Below are positions 1,050-52,055 of a DNA stretch of 64,000 nucleotides, piece after piece. The first letter of the stretch is position 1, and each line of letters begins with the position of its first letter. The DNA is from a phage, in the sequence record OZ346212.1; one strand, 5' to 3'. A model generated the notes under the pieces. It saw nothing but the letters and a program-made list of their open reading frames with translations, was not told the origin of the DNA and searched no databases. The position numbers and the translations under genes were made by a program.

Positions 1050-2767
1050 TGGCAACAGCTGTTTTTAAACCTTACCGTGATTACTCTACAATGGCTGCAC
1101 GGTTTCATTACCGAACAGTTCAGGATACTGCCGTTCCTGGTAGGGATTATGATCATGTTGAGGGCGATGTAACTATCCCAGTTGGGGCAACCAGTATTGA
1201 GATCCCCGTGGAAATTGTTGACAAATTACCCAACAGGTTGCCAAGAAGCTTCTTTATGGAGTTTTCATCAAAATCTCAAGGGGTGATGATTGGAACACAA
1301 AGGGCGAAATGTACAATAGTTTCAGATGAGAATCTTGACAGGATATCTTGGGATACTGTTGAGGAGAGAATGTTTCACCCAAGATATTGGGTTACAACCA
1401 CTCAGCAGACTGAAAGTACCTGTATTGTTGCAGATAACAACTGTTGTATTAACCGTTTAGTGTCAAGAACATATGGAGGTATGGCTGGGTGCATTTGGGA
1501 AACAGTTGACAAGTATGACCATTTCGGTATTGGGTTTGATGATCACTATGAGATGAGAAACACCAAGCTTTGGTTCAGAATGTCAATAACCAACGCCAGC
1601 AACTTCTCCACTCCTGAAAAGATGATTATGACTGTAGACCTTGTTGATGGCACAATCATCTATGTTCCTTTAGCTCAATATGCTGTCAGCATCTCAGAGG
1701 ATAAGAATGTTGCAGAAATTCATATTGATTTTGAGGACTGCGTCGGGATGGACCAGAACAACAACATGATGGGTGTTGATCCTCGGCAGGTGAGAAGGAT
1801 TTTAATACCGCTTATGCCTAAAGACTGGGTAAGTAATAGCACAGACCCGAGAACGGAAAATGTAAAGTGTGAGTTGCGCCTAGATCTGCTTCAGCCAGAC
1901 ACAGGCTGGAAAATGATGCAACTTAACAATATCCAGGTGAGAGAGCACGATGTTGGGATCTGCACCGCATATGACGATATGTGGAACGTGTCTCCTTTAA
2001 GGGTGTTGAACAATATCAAGCGTCTGGGCTATACCGGAACCATAAACCATTATGTTGGTATGAGTCATTATTATGACTACACATGGTCAGGAACCCAATG
2101 GTCTATAAACAGAACAGGAGCGCTAAACGCTGCAGCTTATAAATGGCATGATGATTTTATGTACAATGCCAAACGACATAACTTCGACGTTATGCAATCT
2201 GTAAGTTTTGAGCTTTTCAGCGATGCCTGCCCGTTGGAATGGACCCAAAGAGACTGGAACGATAACTACGCTAAAACAGGGTATACACCTTGTAGCTACC
2301 TCCTGTCTCCAACCATTGAAGAGGGTATGAATTTCCTTACTGCAGTATTTAAGAATTTTGCATCAGCCGCTATGAGAAACAACCTGCCAGTGATTATGCA
2401 GGTTGGTGAACCGTGGTGGTGGTACAATACCGATACTCGTAGACCTTGTATTTATGATTACCCTACAAAACAGGCGTTTTATGATGAGACAGGCGAGTAT
2501 GCATTAGATATTGGGACTATTGACGATCCTAAAACTGGCGGTGTTTACGATAAGTATGTAGCATTTTGTCGTGGTAAGCTTGGCGCTCGTATTGCGGCTA
2601 TTTCAAAGGCAATAAAGGCACACGCTGCATCAGCTCAGATGACAGCTCTGCTGTTTTCCCAACCATTATGGAAACCGAGCTTACGCAAAAGCTTAACCTT
2701 GCTGACCAATATAAAAAGGAAGCAGGTGCTCTTGATTTCTTCTGCACCGAGTGCTACGATTGGGTGA
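1049..2767 (+). CDS. putative tail fiber / baseplate-attached protein (572 aa)
   Basis: Large ORF translationally coupled to upstream gene; N-terminal stretch DYDHVEGDVTIPVGATSIEIPVEIVD resembles a Calx-beta-like beta-sandwich motif; position equivalent to fiber gene after baseplate genes. Confidence 0.65.
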   Translation: MATAVFKPYRDYSTMAARFHYRTVQDTAVPGRDYDHVEGDVTIPVGATSIEIPVEIVDKLPNRLPRSFFMEFSSKSQGVMIGTQRAKCTIVSDENLDRISWDTVEERMFHPRYWVTTTQQTESTCIVADNNCCINRLVSRTYGGMAGCIWETVDKYDHFGIGFDDHYEMRNTKLWFRMSITNASNFSTPEKMIMTVDLVDGTIIYVPLAQYAVSISEDKNVAEIHIDFEDCVGMDQNNNMMGVDPRQVRRILIPLMPKDWVSNSTDPRTENVKCELRLDLLQPDTGWKMMQLNNIQVREHDVGICTAYDDMWNVSPLRVLNNIKRLGYTGTINHYVGMSHYYDYTWSGTQWSINRTGALNAAAYKWHDDFMYNAKRHNFDVMQSVSFELFSDACPLEWTQRDWNDNYAKTGYTPCSYLLSPTIEEGMNFLTAVFKNFASAAMRNNLPVIMQVGEPWWWYNTDTRRPCIYDYPTKQAFYDETGEYALDIGTIDDPKTGGVYDKYVAFCRGKLGARIAAISKAIKAHAASAQMTALLFSQPLWKPSLRKSLTLLTNIKRKQVLLISSAPSATIG

Positions 2768-3120
2768 TGCAGGGAGGTATTGAAAAGGCAAAAGAGTCTG
2801 TAAACATACCTATCGTTAAGTTAGGTTGGCAACCGTCTGAAATACAATACCTTGCAGGGTTCGTTCCTAGTAAAGAGCTTGCTCCGGTATATGGCTACGA
2901 CCCAACCAGGAATTACCAAGAATTTTTATGGAGATGTATCTGCGGAAACATGGCAACCATAGAGTATAGATACCCTGAGGTAAAACAGTATGTGTGGGCA
3001 TACCCGCAAGTAATGTCTGACAGCATCACTGTTACAGCCAGAGATTCTACCGTGCTTCATATGGGGCAGGTTGCTCTGAAAGGGTATGTAGAAGATGTTG
3101 TCCCTCCAGACTTCTCATAA
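2767..3120 (+). CDS. hypothetical structural-module protein (118 aa; alternative start 2668 gives 150 aa)
   Basis: ATG at 2767 overlaps the TGA of upstream gene (TGATG); track ORF 2668..3120 would overlap upstream gene by 100 nt. Confidence 0.5.
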   Translation: MQGGIEKAKESVNIPIVKLGWQPSEIQYLAGFVPSKELAPVYGYDPTRNYQEFLWRCICGNMATIEYRYPEVKQYVWAYPQVMSDSITVTARDSTVLHMGQVALKGYVEDVVPPDFS

Positions 3121-3132
3121 TCAGGAGATAAA

Positions 3133-4173
3133 ATGTCAAAACCTAGTTTTCCATTAGAGATTTGGGCAGAGGAGGATCAGGTTCTGCCTAACACCCACAG
3201 ACAGAACAGGCTACGCCCGATCGATGATTTGTGGAGAAAAGGTTGGGATCTTGGTCAAAAGCCATCCTGTGAAGAACTTAACTATATTTTCAATATGCTC
3301 GGAACTTGGGCAAAATACATTGCTGACGAGCAGATCCCCGCTCAAGAAGGCCGTTATCTGGTACGTGATAATAACTTGAGCGATCTTTTGAACATCCCTG
3401 TTGCCCGTAGAAACCTTGGGATTATCACTAAGGAAGAGGCAGACGCCAGGTATGTAAAAGTTACAGGTGATACAATGACAGGCCCCTTGGGGTTGCAACG
3501 TATCAACTTTAAAGCTGCCGAGACAGATAAGGCTTGGATAGAGACAACTATTGGCCCAGATAAGACAACTCTCGACTTTGGGTTAAGTGATAATACCGGG
3601 TCGTTTGATGATGGTGGTACATCTACAGTGGATGCGTTTCGTTGGAGATTCCAGCCAACTCAGCCGGATATTAATCCAGAGTTCACTTTGATGTACCTTA
3701 ACGCGATCACGGCTAATCGTGCGCTGTTGAAAGTGGTAGGCAATGTTGAAGTTGTCGATAACATGAGGTGCAATAACCTTACTATCAGCAATACAGCAAC
3801 ATTCACCAACTGTAATGTGGCTAGTCAGTTGACGGCTGGGTCAGTATATGTTAATGGTGGTGCAAGTTGTGACAGTATGGTTGTAAGAAGCCAGCACTGT
3901 GTTGTCGGTAACAGAAATGTGGTGCGCTCCGTGAATGGAGTGACGGCTAACGGTAACGGTGATGTAACGATCACTATCCCGCAGACAGGTGTGCAAGACA
4001 TCAGAATCGGTGCAAGACTTGTGGACGGCGTTTCTGAATCTCCAATCCGCAACGGCTACGTTGTCACAGGCTGGCATTTCGGTGACAAAAAAGAGATGCG
4101 TGGTTCAACCTACTGGGCAGGACCCTTACAAAAACTTGTAAATGGTCAATGGATCACTGTTAATTATGCATAG
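3133..4173 (+). CDS. tail fiber / receptor-binding protein, paralog A (346 aa)
   Basis: SD AGGAGA upstream; N-terminus PLEIWAEEDQVL and C-terminus YWAGPLQKLVNGQWITVNYA shared with ORF 5186..6229, central region divergent; GDTMTGPL fiber-like motif. Confidence 0.8.
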   Translation: MSKPSFPLEIWAEEDQVLPNTHRQNRLRPIDDLWRKGWDLGQKPSCEELNYIFNMLGTWAKYIADEQIPAQEGRYLVRDNNLSDLLNIPVARRNLGIITKEEADARYVKVTGDTMTGPLGLQRINFKAAETDKAWIETTIGPDKTTLDFGLSDNTGSFDDGGTSTVDAFRWRFQPTQPDINPEFTLMYLNAITANRALLKVVGNVEVVDNMRCNNLTISNTATFTNCNVASQLTAGSVYVNGGASCDSMVVRSQHCVVGNRNVVRSVNGVTANGNGDVTITIPQTGVQDIRIGARLVDGVSESPIRNGYVVTGWHFGDKKEMRGSTYWAGPLQKLVNGQWITVNYA

Positions 4174-5185: not shown

Positions 5186-6229
5186 ATGACTAAACCAGTT
5201 ATCCCTCTTGATATTTGGGCCAATCAGGATGTTGTGCTTGAAAATACGGGAGAGTTGAATAAGTCTCAACCAAAAAAAGAAGAGAGATTGAAAGGTTGGG
5301 ATATGACACAAAGAGTGGCATGTGAAGTTGTTAACTTTGAACTTCACATGCTTTCTGCGTGGTTAAAGCATTTAACAGAAGATGTTGTCCCAGGATGGGA
5401 TAATAGATTCTTAAGGGTCACTAATAATCTAGCAGACGTTCCAGACAAAGCTGCTGCACGTCAAGTTCTCAATGTATACTCGCCTGAAGAAATGGACGAT
5501 CTGTATGTTGACAAGTCTGGAGACATAATGACTCAGACTCAAACTTTAGGCCTTCAAAGAATCGAGTTTGCATCTGCGTCAACAGACAATGCGGCAATAT
5601 ATACCACCATAACTCCAGACAAGACGACGATGGACTTCTGGATTATGGACAACATCGGTGGTGCTGACGGCACAGACCTTGATGATCCTTCTCACCAAAT
5701 AGACGGGTTCCGTTGGAGATTTCAACCTTCTGGTGGGCAGCCTGTGTTTTCGGCTATGAAGCTCAATGCTATAACTGCCAACCGTGCAAGACTGGCTATC
5801 CAAGGAAATCTTGAATGCAACGATGCAAAAAGTTCCTCTGCAAATGCCAATGCGGTCACGATACCAAGAGCCACTGTTAACGGACAACAATCCTGCGGAA
5901 GCGCTCAAATAGGTGGAAGAGTTGATTGTAACGATGAAACCGTTAGAGGCCAATATGCAACCGTTGGTGGAAGAAACGTGGTCCGCAGGGTAAACGGTAA
6001 CAGCGCAGACGGTAGTGGTAACCTTACTGTCCCTATGCCCAGTAGAGGGGTTGACGATGTAAGGATAGCGAACCGTTTCAAAACCACCTACAGAGAGTCA
6101 AGGGTCTACCCTGGACATGTGATGTGCTCTGGTAACTACGCTTATAAACACCCTTATCAAGGTGATTACTGGACAGGTGCTATCCAAAAACTTGTAAACG
6201 GTCAATGGATCACTATATCTTATGCTTAA
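5186..6229 (+). CDS. tail fiber / receptor-binding protein, paralog B (347 aa)
   Basis: ATG 5186 preferred over GTG 5183 by alignment with paralog A (MTKPVIPLDIW vs MSKPSFPLEIW); conserved C-terminus YWTGAIQKLVNGQWITISYA. Confidence 0.8.
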   Translation: MTKPVIPLDIWANQDVVLENTGELNKSQPKKEERLKGWDMTQRVACEVVNFELHMLSAWLKHLTEDVVPGWDNRFLRVTNNLADVPDKAAARQVLNVYSPEEMDDLYVDKSGDIMTQTQTLGLQRIEFASASTDNAAIYTTITPDKTTMDFWIMDNIGGADGTDLDDPSHQIDGFRWRFQPSGGQPVFSAMKLNAITANRARLAIQGNLECNDAKSSSANANAVTIPRATVNGQQSCGSAQIGGRVDCNDETVRGQYATVGGRNVVRRVNGNSADGSGNLTVPMPSRGVDDVRIANRFKTTYRESRVYPGHVMCSGNYAYKHPYQGDYWTGAIQKLVNGQWITISYA

Positions 6230-17689: not shown

Positions 17690-17953
17690 TTAGAAACCCT
17701 CTAAAAAGCTCTTGTAGAAAATAATTTCAGTATCTACACCAGTCACGATCTTATCGTTCCTGATTTCATCTGTAAGGTAGGTGTCAAAACGCAGAACCTG
17801 TGTGGTGTTGTCACACATCCACTCAGCTGTGACCATTGCGAAAATCTTAGCATCTTCATTATCTGGTGTGAATGTTACCACCTCACCGCACTTAAACTTT
17901 TCGATAGGCTGAGTGTTAGCTTTCGGTTCTGCGATAGTGATTTTTGTGGTCAT
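17690..17953 (-). CDS. small protein, member 3 of tandem paralog array (87 aa)
   Basis: SD GGAGGAG; motif F.CGEVV...IVTGVDTEIIFY parallels the neighbours. Confidence 0.65.
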   Translation of the reverse strand: MTTKITIAEPKANTQPIEKFKCGEVVTFTPDNEDAKIFAMVTAEWMCDNTTQVLRFDTYLTDEIRNDKIVTGVDTEIIFYKSFLEGF

Positions 17954-18216
17954 TATTCTCCTCCTTCTTTTGAATAGCTTGTCTCTCCAAGGATGGTAAT
18001 TTTGGTGTCAAGCTCTGTAACTTTCATGTTTGGCGGCAGATCGTACAACTCATTATTTTCTAAATCGAACCCCCACACACAATGTTCTCCTGTTTTGACA
18101 ATCATAACTATGTTTTGAATGCCGTCTCCGTCGCAACTTACCACAGTCCCACACGGAAAGCTGTCTGCACGCTTTTTGTTCTTCACCTTAGAATTGAATA
18201 CAATGCTGGTAGCCAT
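17953..18216 (-). CDS. small protein, member 2 of tandem paralog array (87 aa)
   Basis: SD GGAGGA; CGTVVSCDGDG...VTELDTKITILGE aligns with 18216..18479 product. Confidence 0.65.
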   Translation of the reverse strand: MATSIVFNSKVKNKKRADSFPCGTVVSCDGDGIQNIVMIVKTGEHCVWGFDLENNELYDLPPNMKVTELDTKITILGETSYSKEGGE

Positions 18217-18479
18217 TATTGTTCCTCCACCATAACTTCGCCAATAATTTCTATGCAGGCATCCATTTCTGTAACAACCAAACTGTGAGGTAGTTCTACA
18301 AACACCTTTCTGAACAGGTCAAATACCCCAACATATATGTTTGCAGGATGTGATTTTACAACAAGTGCTGTATTCACATCCCCAAGTTCATCAACAAACA
18401 TCACCACAGTGCCTGGAGCTACTGAGGACAGATACTTCTTAGTTTTACGGTTTGATGCAAATTTTAACTCTGTTGCCAT
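18216..18479 (-). CDS. small protein, member 1 of tandem paralog array (87 aa)
   Basis: SD GAGGAGG; PGTVVMFVDELGD...VTEMDACIEIIGE. Confidence 0.65.
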   Translation of the reverse strand: MATELKFASNRKTKKYLSSVAPGTVVMFVDELGDVNTALVVKSHPANIYVGVFDLFRKVFVELPHSLVVTEMDACIEIIGEVMVEEQ

Positions 18480-19988: not shown

Positions 19989-21029
19989 TTATTTAACGTG
20001 TTTGAAAATACCTGCCAACTCGGTCATTGTCATGCGGGTGGTCTTCATAAGATCTGTCATAGCTTTCTCCATAATTGGAGATACTACCATAAAGTTTCCT
20101 TTAGTGAAACCTTTATTCCAGTCGGTCACCAACAGGGGTTTAAGTCCAGCTCCAAGACGTTCACCAGTTAAAGCACAGCATTTGCGAATATACGAACTCT
20201 TAAATTGGCTGAACGACAGATCAACTTTCATACCTACATCGTAGAACGTTTGACAATAGAAAGTGTAAGCTTTGGCAATCTCAACATCATCAGGTAGTGC
20301 AGGAACCTCTTCTGTAAGCTCCTCTTCGACCTCCTGAGTCTCTTTTTCCTCTTCATGCACCTGTTGCGTCATTTCTTCAATCTCTTCTGTGATAGGCTCG
20401 TTTACAATGTCGGAAATGTGCTTCTTGGGTGCACGATAAGTAACTTTAGACATCGGTAGCATATCTTCCTCCTCTTCTTCGTCAAAGAGTGCTAGTTTAT
20501 CCTCTTCCGTTCCATATTGCAAGATGAAATCTTCAAAAGTATAATCACCTTTCAATTTCTCCATACGCTCTTCGCTCAGGTGGAGCATCATCTGCTGGAC
20601 AATTTTTCGATCAGTTTCGTCTTTAATCAAGACTGCAGTCTTTTTATCTACCAGACAGTCCTTTAGAGAGTTGCATCTCAATCCCACCACACAACAGTTA
20701 TCAACCGCATAAGGACCTTCATCATCTATCCGCTCCAGAGATGGGTAGAAAGGATTCCCCAGCCCGTTTTCATCTGTGTGCATGTCAAAAGGTATAAGGG
20801 TATAGTCGCATACTCCATCTCCTAAAAGTTTTTTACCAAATAGGAGGTATTCTTCCCATGACAGGTCGAACTCTATATCTCGTTTCCGTGCGTTATTCTG
20901 TTTGCGTCTATATTTTTTGAGCAAGCGCTCTAACTCTTCTGGTGTATAATATTTTTCAAGATTCATGAGTCGTCTCTCGTGCTCTGTAAGTGAAGAAATC
21001 GTATCAATTGTCTCAACAGATGTCAACAT
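19989..21029 (-). CDS. hypothetical protein with two related Cys-containing domains and an acidic linker (346 aa)
   Basis: ATG 21029 preferred over TTG 21032; internal duplication (...PSLERIDDEGPYAVDNCCVVGLRCN... and ...CCALTGERL...NFMVVSP...); internal ATG sits in a 29-bp repeat shared with 22292..22320. Confidence 0.6.
   Translation of the reverse strand: MLTSVETIDTISSLTEHERRLMNLEKYYTPEELERLLKKYRRKQNNARKRDIEFDLSWEEYLLFGKKLLGDGVCDYTLIPFDMHTDENGLGNPFYPSLERIDDEGPYAVDNCCVVGLRCNSLKDCLVDKKTAVLIKDETDRKIVQQMMLHLSEERMEKLKGDYTFEDFILQYGTEEDKLALFDEEEEEDMLPMSKVTYRAPKKHISDIVNEPITEEIEEMTQQVHEEEKETQEVEEELTEEVPALPDDVEIAKAYTFYCQTFYDVGMKVDLSFSQFKSSYIRKCCALTGERLGAGLKPLLVTDWNKGFTKGNFMVVSPIMEKAMTDLMKTTRMTMTELAGIFKHVK
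20431..20459. repeat. 29-bp sequence identical (inverted) to 22292..22320, includes an ATG
   Basis: Reverse complement of 20431..20459 = TACCGATGTCTAAAGTTACTTATCGTGCA = 22292..22320. Confidence 0.8.
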
Positions 21030-21039
21030 CAAAAACGTG

Positions 21040-21068
21040 TTGACTTTACTCTAACTCCACAATATAGT
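21040..21068 (+). promoter_or_regulatory. sigma70-like promoter (TTGACT-N17-TATAGT)
   Basis: Hexamers at 21040 and 21063 in the divergent intergenic region upstream of 21109. Confidence 0.55.
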
Positions 21069-21108
21069 GCACCCATTCGAAAGAAAACTAACATAGGAGC
21101 ACTTACTT

Positions 21109-22008
21109 ATGGCAAATCTTAACAGTTTTAGTACGCGGTGGAAACAGGACATAACAACCAATCTTTCAGCTGGGGACATCCTTTCTGCAATTTACGAGGC
21201 TTTAGATGATAAAGCTACTTCAAAAGCGGTTTGTACCAACCCATTAATTCCTATAGTGATGAAGGTTATTGAGCGTAGATTGGTATCTGGGTCTGATAAG
21301 TGGACATATTTAGATAATGAAGGACACACCTATTCCAATGGGTATGTCGATATAAAAGTAGAATACGCGGTATCATACCGCCGGAGCGGTTCTGTAACTT
21401 TCAACTTCTCTGGAGGTTTTCGATCTCTGGCTACCTCACCTTTTGTTTCCTCAGAGGAGAAGTATGAGCTGCCATTTCTTTGGATGATGGCTAACGCGAC
21501 AGGAAAAACCCCCGTTAGCATCCGAGTAAAATACAACTACAACGGATCTAGTAAGATCTATGCCGAAAGTGTCTCAGCAAGTTTTTATTTTGTGATGGGG
21601 GATGGAATCCTCAAACATATAAAGATGTGCGATATGCATGATGTTATAAATGAAGTGACTGATAAGAATGTTCTAGTGAAAGACCTCAACAATTTTTATA
21701 CACCTGGAGACTATTACGTCAGCCGTCCACTGTGCATCTTTAATGCCGCACACCCTCTAGGTGAGTATTTGATCGCCAATAGCGATATTGCCAATAACCG
21801 CTTCGAGGTAGCAAGAGTTCAGAATGAGGTATTGACATCTTGCAAGAGCGGTGATAAGTTTACCGAAGAAGAGATGGGTGTTTTAGAAATGATGGGATAT
21901 AAGTGTAGCCTTTGGGTAGATGAGGTGTTTAATGATTGCATCTATGGACAGGATATTTACCCATTAAAGAAGTATACTGATACAAGTTTAATTTATGCGA
22001 GGGTTTGA
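21109..22008 (+). CDS. hypothetical protein (299 aa)
   Basis: ORF with SD AGGAG 9 nt upstream. Confidence 0.65.
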   Translation: MANLNSFSTRWKQDITTNLSAGDILSAIYEALDDKATSKAVCTNPLIPIVMKVIERRLVSGSDKWTYLDNEGHTYSNGYVDIKVEYAVSYRRSGSVTFNFSGGFRSLATSPFVSSEEKYELPFLWMMANATGKTPVSIRVKYNYNGSSKIYAESVSASFYFVMGDGILKHIKMCDMHDVINEVTDKNVLVKDLNNFYTPGDYYVSRPLCIFNAAHPLGEYLIANSDIANNRFEVARVQNEVLTSCKSGDKFTEEEMGVLEMMGYKCSLWVDEVFNDCIYGQDIYPLKKYTDTSLIYARV

Positions 22009-22283
22009 CTATGATGAAGGCATGTGGTAATGTATATTACGTCGGTGAACATGTTCAGGCAGACAGTGTGTGGAAATCTATTAAGTCCACCACTGACGAT
22101 GCCCTTCTGAGTGGACTATGTTTCCCCAATCCGGGAGACATCCTCCCTCATCCTGGAGATTTTGTTGTCAACAAGATGGACGGTTATACCGTGTGCCTGA
22201 TGGTTGAAAAAATCTTTTTAGACACTAGACACAATCACCGTCTTGTGTTAAAATTTCAAGAATGTAAAATGACAATTGCCTAA
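22005..22283 (+). CDS. hypothetical protein (92 aa)
   Basis: ORF overlapping upstream stop (ATGA), SD GAGGG. Confidence 0.6.
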   Translation: MTMMKACGNVYYVGEHVQADSVWKSIKSTTDDALLSGLCFPNPGDILPHPGDFVVNKMDGYTVCLMVEKIFLDTRHNHRLVLKFQECKMTIA

Positions 22284-22291
22284 GGAGACCT

Positions 22292-22320
22292 TACCGATGT
22301 CTAAAGTTACTTATCGTGCA
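22292..22320. repeat. 29-bp repeat copy spanning the start codon of gene 22297..22653
   Basis: Identical to the reverse complement of 20431..20459. Confidence 0.8.
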
Positions 22321-22653
22321 GCTATTTACTGCAATGAACACCCAATCAATAATGATGGTCACTGCCTTTTTAAAGAAAATCAATTGGGCTGTATTGTCCT
22401 CCCTGATGAAGGGGAAGGTTATCTGATTGCATTGACAGGGTTTGAACCTGAGGCTCTGGAAGCCAATCTGGACTACCTGGTAGAAGAGGGTGCTGCAGAC
22501 CTGGTTGCCAATGGCCTCTCCATAAGCCTTGACGAAGTAGAGCGCTTCATGGGCAATTACCGTGTAGTGCGTGAGTTTACTATCGAGGTGGAAACTCCCG
22601 AGTGGAGTAGCCATGAAACTAATGCCGAAGAAAAAGAAGAGGAGGTAGAATAA
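22297..22653 (+). CDS. hypothetical acidic protein (118 aa)
   Basis: ATG 22297 with SD AAGGAG at 22282 preferred over track start 22276; N-terminus MSKVTYRA. Confidence 0.6.
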   Translation: MSKVTYRAAIYCNEHPINNDGHCLFKENQLGCIVLPDEGEGYLIALTGFEPEALEANLDYLVEEGAADLVANGLSISLDEVERFMGNYRVVREFTIEVETPEWSSHETNAEEKEEEVE

Positions 22654-45689: not shown

Positions 45690-45960
45690 TCATTTAGAAT
45701 TTTGAATGATAATCATTCTCGTTTGCAGAATAACGGGCAGGCCCGGTGATTGTCTCCCGGCCCCTGTTGCCCCGGCTTGTTATTATAGTATCACACAGGA
45801 CAAAGAAAGCAAGGACTTTTTGCATAAATTTTTAAATGATAATGATAACCGTTCTCATTTTATGCAGCGCCCATCCCCGGTGGTTGTCTCCCCCGTCACC
45901 GGTGCCTGCCGTCCTTTCGATATGTATATTGTGCCACCTGGCGGGGCCGCTGTCAACACT
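45690..45960. repeat. two tandem structured noncoding repeats with Fur-box-like head (ATGATAAT...) and conserved core CCCGGTG(A/G)TTGTCTCCC
   Basis: Copy 1 about 45692..45790, copy 2 about 45838..45960; track ORF 45706..46062 spans them but looks noncoding. Confidence 0.5.
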
Positions 45961-46623: not shown

Positions 46624-46809
46624 ATGAAAACCACTACCTTTAATTTTGATAATGCAGACTTTTCTTTTTCTGATGTCAAGAACTGCCGCCGTGATCGTGG
46701 ATTTTACAAGGCTTATAATCTGGTGGGCCTGGACGATGACAATAATTTGCACGAAGTAGCTGAGATCCAGCTTGACAGATTGGACGGGAAAGTACTAAAA
46801 ACTTATTGA
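46624..46809 (+). CDS. hypothetical small protein (61 aa)
   Basis: SD AAGAGGA upstream. Confidence 0.6.
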   Translation: MKTTTFNFDNADFSFSDVKNCRRDRGFYKAYNLVGLDDDNNLHEVAEIQLDRLDGKVLKTY

Positions 46810-46810
46810 G

Positions 46811-46857
46811 TTTATTTTTAGATGGCCTTGACACCAGGGCCATCAATAAAGTAAACT
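46811..46857 (+). promoter_or_regulatory. promoter-stem-loop cassette, copy 1
   Basis: TTTATTTTTAG-ATGGCC-ttgacaccag-GGCCAT-CAATAAAGTAAAC; -35 TTGACA sits in the hairpin loop, -10-like TAAACT 18 nt downstream. Confidence 0.6.
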
Positions 46858-47088: not shown

Positions 47089-47430
47089 ATGACTACTATG
47101 ACCGCCTCAGAAAAAGCTATGCAGATCGCTGAACTGAAAAAACAGATCGCAGACCTTGAGAATAAGATCGATAACTTTGAAATCGACGAGGACAAGTACG
47201 ACGAAAACTATGATGAATGGTTAGACGAGATCTACGGCGAAATTATGATCGGAAACATTTCTTTTCTTCCGTCGCGTATCCTCAAGGAGCTAGATCCTAT
47301 CGCTTACCGCTGCGGATTTAGCGACTACATCGACAGCCTGGATATTGAGGACGATGAAGAATACCAGGAATTACAGACAGAGTTAGAAGAAGCAAAAGAA
47401 GAGCTTGCGGAGCTGGAAGAAAACGAGTAA
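47089..47430 (+). CDS. hypothetical acidic coiled-coil protein (113 aa)
   Basis: SD AAAGGAGA; leader hairpin GGGAA-aac-TTCCC at 47050. Confidence 0.65.
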   Translation: MTTMTASEKAMQIAELKKQIADLENKIDNFEIDEDKYDENYDEWLDEIYGEIMIGNISFLPSRILKELDPIAYRCGFSDYIDSLDIEDDEEYQELQTELEEAKEELAELEENE

Positions 47431-47433
47431 GCT

Positions 47434-47478
47434 TATTTTTAGATGGCCTTGACACCAGGGCCATCAATAAAGTAAACT
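47434..47478 (+). promoter_or_regulatory. promoter-stem-loop cassette, copy 2 (identical to copy 1 over 45 nt)
   Basis: TTATTTTTAGATGGCCTTGACACCAGGGCCATCAATAAAGTAAAC. Confidence 0.6.
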
Positions 47479-47519
47479 TTATACTGTTAACACTGAACTA
47501 ATGCATAGGAGTTAAAACC

Positions 47520-47765
47520 ATGGCAGCACTAATCACCAAATATTATGCCCCTACCAACACCAAAAGCGCCCGTATCATGGTAAAAGGCTTCGGACGTAAA
47601 AAGGTGTACACCTGGGATTATGCCTTAGACACGGAAGACAACTACACCAACGCAATGACCGATTTTATTAATGAACTAAATAAGCAGATCTTGACAAGTT
47701 ATAAAGTGACCGATATTGCTTATATAGGTGAAGGCGGGATCTGTTTTGTAGGCATTGTGAAATAG
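47520..47765 (+). CDS. hypothetical small protein (81 aa)
   Basis: RBS context ATAGGAGTTAAAACCATGGC shared with gene 51771. Confidence 0.6.
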   Translation: MAALITKYYAPTNTKSARIMVKGFGRKKVYTWDYALDTEDNYTNAMTDFINELNKQILTSYKVTDIAYIGEGGICFVGIVK

Positions 47766-47815
47766 TTATTTTTTCGGTGGTCCTGGTTGCAGGGCCATCT
47801 ATAAAGATAATTTAT
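47766..47815 (+). promoter_or_regulatory. degenerate copy of the promoter-stem-loop cassette
   Basis: TTATTTTTTCGGTGGTCCTGGTTGCAGGGCCATCTATAAAGATAA aligns with the cassette but -35 and stem are degraded. Confidence 0.35.
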
Positions 47816-51146: not shown

Positions 51147-51148
51147 AA

Positions 51149-51194
51149 TTTATTTTTAGATGGCCTTGACTCTAGGGCCATCAATAAAGTAAAT
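51149..51194 (+). promoter_or_regulatory. promoter-stem-loop cassette, copy 3
   Basis: TTTATTTTTAGATGGCCTTGACTCTAGGGCCATCAATAAAGTAAAT; differs from copies 1-2 at 3 positions. Confidence 0.6.
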
Positions 51195-51239
51195 TTAAAC
51201 CCTGTTAAAATACCACGCAGTTAACAAGGAGTAATGATC

Positions 51240-51731: not shown

Positions 51732-51770
51732 AGGCCCCAATCATTAACCGGATAGATAGGAGTTAAAACC

Positions 51771-52055
51771 ATGGCTATTGTTACCGCTGGCGATGTAGTA
51801 GAAATGGAAGCAAAATACTTAAAAGCGGGTATGCATATCCTACGCAACGATCTTGAACTGGTCCTGACAATGGTTGACTATAACCCAGGGCAAGATTATC
51901 CAAGTGTTGACTACTTTTTTGAGTATGTTGATGAAGAGTTGAAAGAGGATGAGGCCTATTGCGGTGAGTTCTGCAACTTCTTTTGTCCTGATGAGGTTGT
52001 AAAGGTTATCTATCAACCTGGCGTAGCTTTCCCGCTGCACGCTATCAATAAATAA
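51771..52055 (+). CDS. hypothetical acidic protein (94 aa)
   Basis: RBS context ATAGGAGTTAAAACCATGGC. Confidence 0.6.
   Translation: MAIVTAGDVVEMEAKYLKAGMHILRNDLELVLTMVDYNPGQDYPSVDYFFEYVDEELKEDEAYCGEFCNFFCPDEVVKVIYQPGVAFPLHAINK

Follow-up and report, generated by a model that had tools for sequence, protein, structure and literature searches.

The stretch of DNA considered here, which we call the window, comprises 64,000 nucleotides (nt) from phage sequence record OZ346212.1, and our subject is a 29-nt sequence, TACCGATGTCTAAAGTTACTTATCGTGCA, that occurs in it exactly twice and in opposite orientations, once over the start of a plus-strand gene and once inside a minus-strand gene. The window comes from a Vequintavirus (an rV5-like coliphage) of the Murica type; over 3.8 kb its identity is 99.9% with phage naswa and 99.7% with phage Murica, and 116 of the 120 records that match it keep the same gene order over that distance. 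The rV5-like phages are lytic. The two genes and the two copies of the repeat, which we call arms A and B, are arranged as follows.

19989..20966, minus strand: Srd-like two-domain gene, 325 amino acids (aa), homolog of rV5 gp11, with an N-domain, an acidic linker of variable length and a C-domain
22297..22653, plus strand: homolog of rV5 gene 8, 118 aa, function unassigned, matching phrog_12908, with a Shine-Dalgarno (SD) sequence AAGGAG at 22282-22287
22292..22320, plus strand: arm A, the proposed donor, an exact match that spans the first eight codons of the 118-aa gene, from the ATG at 22297-22299 onward, and the 5 nt directly before them, which end the spacer that follows the SD
20430..20458, minus strand: arm B, the proposed recipient patch, an exact match within the acidic linker that the Srd-like gene encodes, where it makes up codons 170-179 (L-P-M-S-K-V-T-Y-R-A)

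An earlier note on this DNA had described a perfect 29-bp inverted repeat with the peptide MSKVTYRA encoded at both arms, and both observations are confirmed: the 29-mer is present in two exact copies, in-frame translation gives MSKVTYRA from each, and the pair is the longest perfect inverted repeat of the window, the runners-up being 23 and 18 nt long. The position given there for the plus-strand arm is right, but that for the minus-strand arm (20431-20459) is one base too high, and the internal ATG placed at 20454 in fact occupies 20453..20451. Arm B corresponds to nt 509-537 of the Srd-like gene and is separated from arm A by 1,833 nt. The arms lie in divergent transcription units and each is sense-oriented, so the two mRNAs share an identical, not a complementary, sequence.

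About 1e-8 perfect inverted repeats of 29 nt would be expected per 64 kb (an estimate from sequence size), no dinucleotide shuffle of 100 gave any 29-mer match, and there is no third copy in the window even when up to 3 mismatches are allowed. Both arms are perfect in at least 23 independent phage records and in a 137-kb human-gut metagenome contig, where they have their native flanks. Chance is therefore ruled out, and so is the assembly artefact that the earlier note had named as a possible refutation. The 29-mer occurs at no more than two places in any phage record, and arm A is the sole other copy of arm B in the window; a host origin is ruled out by the lack of any match in the 5,426 Escherichia coli genomes searched.

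The gene that carries arm B is labelled anti-sigma factor or HNH endonuclease in deposited records. Its product matches phrog_3118 from end to end (E=6.5e-113), and its N-domain gives weaker matches to the Srd, EndoVII-like and sigma70-decoy PHROGs; no Pfam domain was found in gp11, gp8, gp9 or gp10. The rV5 gp11 protein has been put forward as a homolog of Srd (PMC3606486).

Origin of arm B

The region was gathered from 30 loci, which represent Vequintavirus species, four outgroup contigs from IMG/VR (loci L005-L008, about 64% aa identity) and other genera, and the B region was aligned in 9, then 16, loci. All of the Vequintavirus loci examined have arm A at the start of gene 8, and 7 of its 29 positions show ordinary polymorphism. 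Arm B occurs solely in Murica-type alleles, which make up 28 of 118 phage records, and identities over the 141-nt B region are sharply bimodal: 28 records are at least 95% identical, 90 are at most 81% identical, and none falls between. The B form of these other 90 records and of the 64% outgroup is 12 nt longer, MSPMQDFKNFMADRAANK. Non-Murica Vequintavirus B alleles read GATATG TC ACC(G/A)ATG CAGGAYTTTAAAAAYTTYATGGCT(G/A) ATCGTG(C/G)AGCC AACAA(A/G)CAC and encode MSPMQDFKNFMA(D/N)R(A/G)ANKH; the only blocks that they have in common with arm A are ACCGATG and ATCGTGCA(GC), and these are in the same reading frame. The outgroup peptide, MTPAQELREFMEKR-AEKHI, aligns with the long form, the Murica form being MLPMSK----VTYRAPKKHI, and for that reason we take the long form to be ancestral and the Murica form to be derived.

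Outside the patch the Murica-type alleles constitute a single clade (at least 97.1% identity), which has spread to Denmark, Germany and Ireland at least, going by the origin of its isolates. Within this clade arm B is invariant, and arm A has drifted in phages nomine, PMBT16 and A51.2 (28/29 matches) and in Alma (27/29). Two members show signs of reshuffling: the inoa allele is a mosaic, divergent in its N-terminal half and identical in the linker and C-terminal half, and Alma combines a Murica-type B arm with an A arm like that of slur16 and ev147. This distribution speaks for one event, with arm A as the donor, in the ancestor from which the Murica-type allele descends.

The alignments and the polarity provided by the outgroup divide arm B into three parts.

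20451..20457, minus strand: left microhomology block ACCGATG, which matches 22293-22299 in arm A and was already present in rV5-type B alleles
20438..20450, minus strand: putative core templated tract TCTAAAGTTACTT, 13 nt, which replaced the ancestral 25 nt CAGGATTTTAAAAAYTTCATGGCTR
20430..20437, minus strand: right microhomology block ATCGTGCA, which matches 22313-22320 in arm A and extends to ATCGTGCAGC in ancestral rV5-type alleles

Exchange of 25 nt for 13 nt is a net loss of 12 nt, and the frame is kept. Murica-type alleles differ from their relatives in 20-22 of the 41 arm alignment columns, the 12-nt indel included, against 4.6-7.4% over the rest of the gene, and all of the differences within the arm make B identical to A (29/29). 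In an unpatched allele of the rV5 type (locus L014) the B sequence is TCACCGATG and the A arm is TTACCGATG, and both edge blocks, ACCGATG and ATCGTGCAGC, are already there; FV3-type alleles have weaker edge blocks, ACCAATG and ATCGTG. The reconstructed ancestral linker is ATG TCA CCG ATG CAG GAT TTT AAA AAT TTC ATG GCT GAT CGT GCA GCC (MSPMQDFKNFMADRAA).

The aligned alleles thus show an ancestral, unchanged donor, a derived recipient, changes gathered in one cluster, and edge microhomologies that predate them. We consider it quite probable that a single templated mutation, in the ancestor of the Murica-type Srd-like allele, left arm B as its footprint. By chance, the ancestral linker would have shared two in-frame blocks with the start of gene 8, 1.8 kb away and on the opposite strand. 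While the DNA was being synthesized, a nascent minus strand with ACCGATG at its end would have left its template and paired, across the fork, with the complementary block that the other strand carries at the start of gene 8; about 13 nt (TCTAAAGTTACTT) would have been copied there before the strand returned to its own template by way of the ATCGTGCA block. In this way an inverted repeat that had been imperfect and limited to two blocks would have become perfect over 29 bp, and MSKVTYRA would have been moved into the linker; the peptide is the same at both sites because the two microhomology blocks shared a reading frame beforehand. The patch would then have persisted because the frame was kept in a linker of variable length, where the change could be tolerated.

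A two-block donor comparable to this one is rare for this particular site (1 of 200 shuffles), but when random sites in the window are tried, about 1.2% turn out to have such a donor within 64 kb; donors of this kind are plentiful enough for the earlier similarity to be unremarkable. Nor does the edge homology stem from paralogy, which is ruled out by comparison of the 118-aa protein with unpatched gp11 over its C-terminal half (BLASTP E=55).

The same footprint and polarity could also have been produced by short-patch gene conversion, either by heteroduplex repair or by synthesis-dependent strand annealing, acting between the two loci of one genome, within a concatemer, or between co-infecting phages. 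Phage genomes recombine heavily, as the mosaic inoa allele and the mixed arms of Alma illustrate, and break repair, too, is known to involve mutagenic template switches. However, the pre-existing homology is only 7 nt on one side and 8-10 nt on the other, and the crossover product of such an exchange, an inversion, is seen in none of 114 records. Segments of 7-10 nt are well below the minimal processing segment of RecA/UvsX-type or Red-type recombination. We therefore hold a replication template switch to be more likely than recombinational conversion as the enzymatic route, and we judge conversion, the chief rival as to mechanism, to be unlikely.

Several observations count against a templated origin by template switching. 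The distance of 1,833 nt between donor and recipient far exceeds the tens to hundreds of bp usual in documented quasi-palindrome corrections and short-range switches, and long-range switches are explicitly outside the model of PMC5453318. In addition, arm A provides no template for three Murica-specific substitutions at the borders of the patch (T to C two nt before the arm, G to C one nt after it and C to G six nt after it), and no second donor for them was found in the window. Background variation in the linker is 4-6 per 30 columns, and these changes may be ordinary linker divergence, errors of synthesis at the switch points, or the mark of unsampled donor or recipient alleles; intermediate B alleles, or A alleles with CTACCGATG or GTGCACC, could account for them. 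Finally, conservation of the replaced segment, Q-D/E-F/L-K/R-x-F-M, extends from Vequintavirus to the 64% outgroup, so the change may not have been strictly neutral.

That the patch is positively non-neutral is a more specific proposal, and we give it only a slight chance: an internal start might have been created or strengthened beside purine-rich Glu codons, or gp11 and gp8 might on rare occasions exchange domains by inversion. If it were true, a long-range template switch would have made a new protein isoform in one step.

As a natural example, the locus offers a clean templated multi-nucleotide mutation in which donor, recipient, polarity and flanking microhomologies are all visible. The template was seemingly borrowed, by a polymerase or by repair synthesis, from 1.8 kb away on the opposite strand, a range well beyond that of the usual comparative searches for template switches, and one step of this kind can move a start codon and an eight-residue peptide into another protein with the frame kept. 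Alignment-based tests of selection could be misled by it, as one event resembles some 20 substitutions plus an indel. With this locus as the substrate, long-range template switching could be measured in a phage that is lytic. The patch also marks the Murica-type allele of gp11, the practical value of which is modest.

Sixteen MG0656xx records in the comparison are labelled 'Campylobacter phage' (UNVERIFIED) and are 90-99.6% identical to E. coli Vequintaviruses in this region; mislabelling of the host, or contamination of the preparations, is the probable reason.

Functional readings of the repeat

Could the transplanted initiation region act as an internal start at Met172, with the C-terminal domain made as a separate product in Murica-type phages? 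The sequence from -5 to +24 around the Met172 ATG is identical to a genuine start site, a purine-rich GAGGAGG (20474-20468) lies upstream, and in-frame linker Met codons with an SD-like motif are found in relatives from several genera. The earlier note had pointed to GAGGAGG in this connection, and it is indeed upstream of the repeat, but 14 nt separate its end from the ATG of the repeat, more than a good SD sequence allows, and there is no SD core 4-10 nt upstream of Met172. Nor was the donor's own SD, AAGGAG, part of the copied tract. Met172 is present in Vequintavirus and is Ala in the outgroup. The conserved candidate with good spacing is instead Met169 (20462-20460), 9 nt upstream of Met172, outside the repeat and both older than and independent of it; GAGGAGG stands 5 nt before its ATG, a spacing suited to an SD sequence. 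The base rate of an SD motif with a Met is, moreover, 21% in Glu-rich contexts compared with 6.3% overall. An internal start owed to the patch therefore seems to us very improbable.

Met169 is of some interest in its own right, as an in-frame Met with an SD-like motif (gaGGAGGaagatATG, 20460-20474, minus strand) at the start of the acidic linker. Linker Met codons with GGAG(G) 5-9 nt upstream are present in Vequintavirus, in the 64% outgroup (L005/L006, around 5540-5560), in Seunavirus and Mydovirus, and in KP13-16 (Stephanstirmvirinae), the further loci concerned being the linker regions of L021-L024 and L028; the arrangement is absent in ChuuTotoro and in the Aeromonas phages. These codons are not at alignable positions between lineages. 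There is thus only a hint that the linker Met may be a conserved internal start giving the C-terminal domain alone, and it may equally be a by-product of the Glu codons.

A promoter-like sequence, TTGACG-16-TATGCT (20458-20485, minus strand), abuts arm B. Its -10 box, TATGCT, is found in Murica-type alleles only, the ancestral sequence being TATGTC, and results from a TC to CT change at the border of the patch. Promoter-like matches in this region are at the level of chance (8 found, 6.2 +/- 2.1 expected).

The suggestion in the earlier note that the 29-mer is a shared translational operator, that is, a site for a translational repressor, a small RNA or an RNase that would co-regulate gene 8 and the Srd-like gene, fared poorly. 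It has in its favor that the same 29 nt are sense-oriented in both divergent mRNAs and cover the start codon in one of them. Yet arm B is absent from 90 of the 118 related records, the site in the Srd-like mRNA is internal to the reading frame and not at its start, and arm A is no better conserved than its surroundings: 7 of its 29 columns vary, a fraction of 0.24, and the mean for the region is 0.22. In the four Murica-type phages nomine, PMBT16, A51.2 and Alma there are 1-2 mismatches between the arms, with no compensating change; RNA folding at the two arms is not significant (z = -1.8 and 0.0), there is no Rfam match at either arm, and the 29-mer has no counterpart in the E. coli genomes mentioned above. 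We regard a shared operator as highly improbable, and the case illustrates that perfect inverted repeats over start codons need not be regulatory.

Least credible of all is the reading of the arms as crossover sites of an invertible 1.8-kb segment like that of Mu G or a shufflon, which would yield in-frame chimeras (the Srd N-domain joined to the body of gene 8, and the gene-8 start joined to the Srd C-domain): the geometry fits, with same-frame inverted repeats in two coding sequences flanking a divergent promoter region, but the chimeric junction that would run from GAAGATATGC through the 29-mer into GCTATTTACTGC occurs in 0 of 114 phage records matching either half, the collinear records number 116 of 120, the sole metagenome match has native junctions, and the repeat is lineage-specific and recent, with sister species that do without it. 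No site-specific recombinase is annotated in the 6.8-kb loci inspected, the whole genome not having been screened. To our knowledge, no invertase has been reported in rV5-like phages.

The repeat therefore looks like a one-off copying error and not a regulatory device. No sign of a regulatory or recombinational role was found; from sequence comparison the repeat would appear to have no such regulatory role at present, although a minor one is possible.

Gene starts, promoters and other repeats

The earlier note had placed arm B in a 347-aa open reading frame that starts with TTG at 21032. This frame is an over-extension: many records start the gene at ATG 20966, which gives 325 aa, and some deposited records use the longer form instead. 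A consensus scan found the following promoters between the two units.

20998..21068, both strands: divergent, back-to-back sigma-70-like promoters, predicted to drive the two units that hold the arms
21026-20998, minus strand: promoter TTGACA-17-TACGAT
21040-21068, plus strand: promoter TTGACT-17-TATAGT

Since the minus-strand promoter falls inside the extension of the 347-aa frame, the start at 20966 is likely the true start of the Srd-like gene. The -35 boxes of these divergent promoters (of the gene-10 and gene-11 homologs) lie within a palindrome, GTCAAC-ATCAAAAACGT-GTTGAC (21022-21044), which was scored as a stem-loop by a terminator scan too and through which both early units might be regulated.

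The proposal that a recombination footprint had fused a gene start into the larger reading frame stands in one part, as copying from a gene start (some 13-29 nt), and falls in the other. The earlier note had asked whether the 347-aa frame is two genes elsewhere, and related genomes show that it is not: the two-domain frame is full-length in relatives of several genera down to about 23-40% identity. A recent fusion of two genes is ruled out by such full-length homologs in Seunavirus, Mydovirus, Stephanstirmvirinae and Plateaulakevirus phages, and the two-domain Srd-like gene is ancient and not a fusion. An internal duplication is not supported by comparison of the N- and C-domains of gp11 (E=1.5). 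In phage Alma (OV101294, locus L017) the Srd-like gene (2494-3470) is 99.9% identical, with 977 versus 978 nt aligned, and is annotated as a truncated frame of 264 aa; the shortfall of 1 nt, in the N-domain, is either a frameshift or a sequencing error.

Other repeats occur farther along the window. A 20-nt direct repeat, ATAGGAGTTAAAACCATGGC, which consists of an SD, a spacer, an ATG and 2 nt more, is present at 47505-47524 and 51756-51775, 4.25 kb apart; it may have arisen by templated copying as well, or it may be a start-region module that both sites share. A 49-nt element is present in four copies (46809-46857, 47430-47478, 47764-47812 and 51147-51195) that are 71-100% identical; it has a GGCC...GGCC hairpin between A/T-rich arms, and related AT-rich inverted repeats are found at 45951, 50830 and 52327. 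These elements look like repeated terminator/promoter cassettes between small genes. Tandem paralogs of about 87 aa (MAT...F.S..K.KK...; 17953-18479, minus strand) adjoin a DUF2201/VWA metallopeptidase gene, and the count of adjacent genes of about 260 nt beside the metallopeptidase gene varies between phages (L009-L014, L017-L018).

Comparison with known systems

The T4 Srd/rV5 gp11 family, to which the N-domain of the arm-B gene is related by its matches to the Srd, sigma70-decoy and EndoVII-like PHROGs, bears on the gene that received the patch and on nothing else here; that gene has no Pfam domain, and its function in rV5-like phages is putative. With the invertible segments of Mu (G), P1 (C) and the shufflons the locus shares inverted repeats that are in frame within two reading frames, such that inversion would swap C-terminal parts, but the other orientation is seen in 0 of 114 records and the repeat is not conserved in sister species. 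Ectopic gene conversion and microhomology-mediated mosaicism in phages resemble the present case in the non-allelic transfer, the unchanged donor and the later reshuffling of the product (inoa, Alma). The tract of 13-29 nt and the flanks of 7-10 nt are, however, far shorter than is usual for conversion, and unlike phage mosaicism the patch involves no module boundary and no gain or loss of a gene.

The closest parallel is the correction of quasi-palindromes by template switching. Dutra and Lovett (2006) reportedly described a hotspot in the E. coli thyA gene that arises by templated quasi-palindrome mutation, and Schultz and Drake (2008) are reported to have dealt with templated mutagenesis in T4 from direct and reverse repeat donors. 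Template switching is known to even out the arms of inverted repeats, from imperfect to perfect, and to produce multi-nucleotide changes, including several adjacent amino acid replacements in coding DNA (PMC5941160, PMC8604942, PMC5453318); in these papers its first description, in phage T4, is credited to Ripley (1982). Published comparative screens have used spacers of at most 70 bp or windows of 100-200 bp (PMC5941160, PMC5453318).

Arm B has the features of such a correction: substitutions and an indel acquired in one step, a new tract that is the reverse complement of pre-existing sequence, short flanking homologies, an imperfect repeat made perfect, and the replacement of neighboring amino acids. 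It differs in that the arms are 1,833 nt apart in two divergently transcribed genes, and in that the copied tract brings along a start codon and eight codons, whose reading frame is retained in the new location. The process, templated mutation, is thus one already known, and what sets this example apart is the 1.8-kb distance of the donor and the in-frame transplant of a start codon with eight codons.

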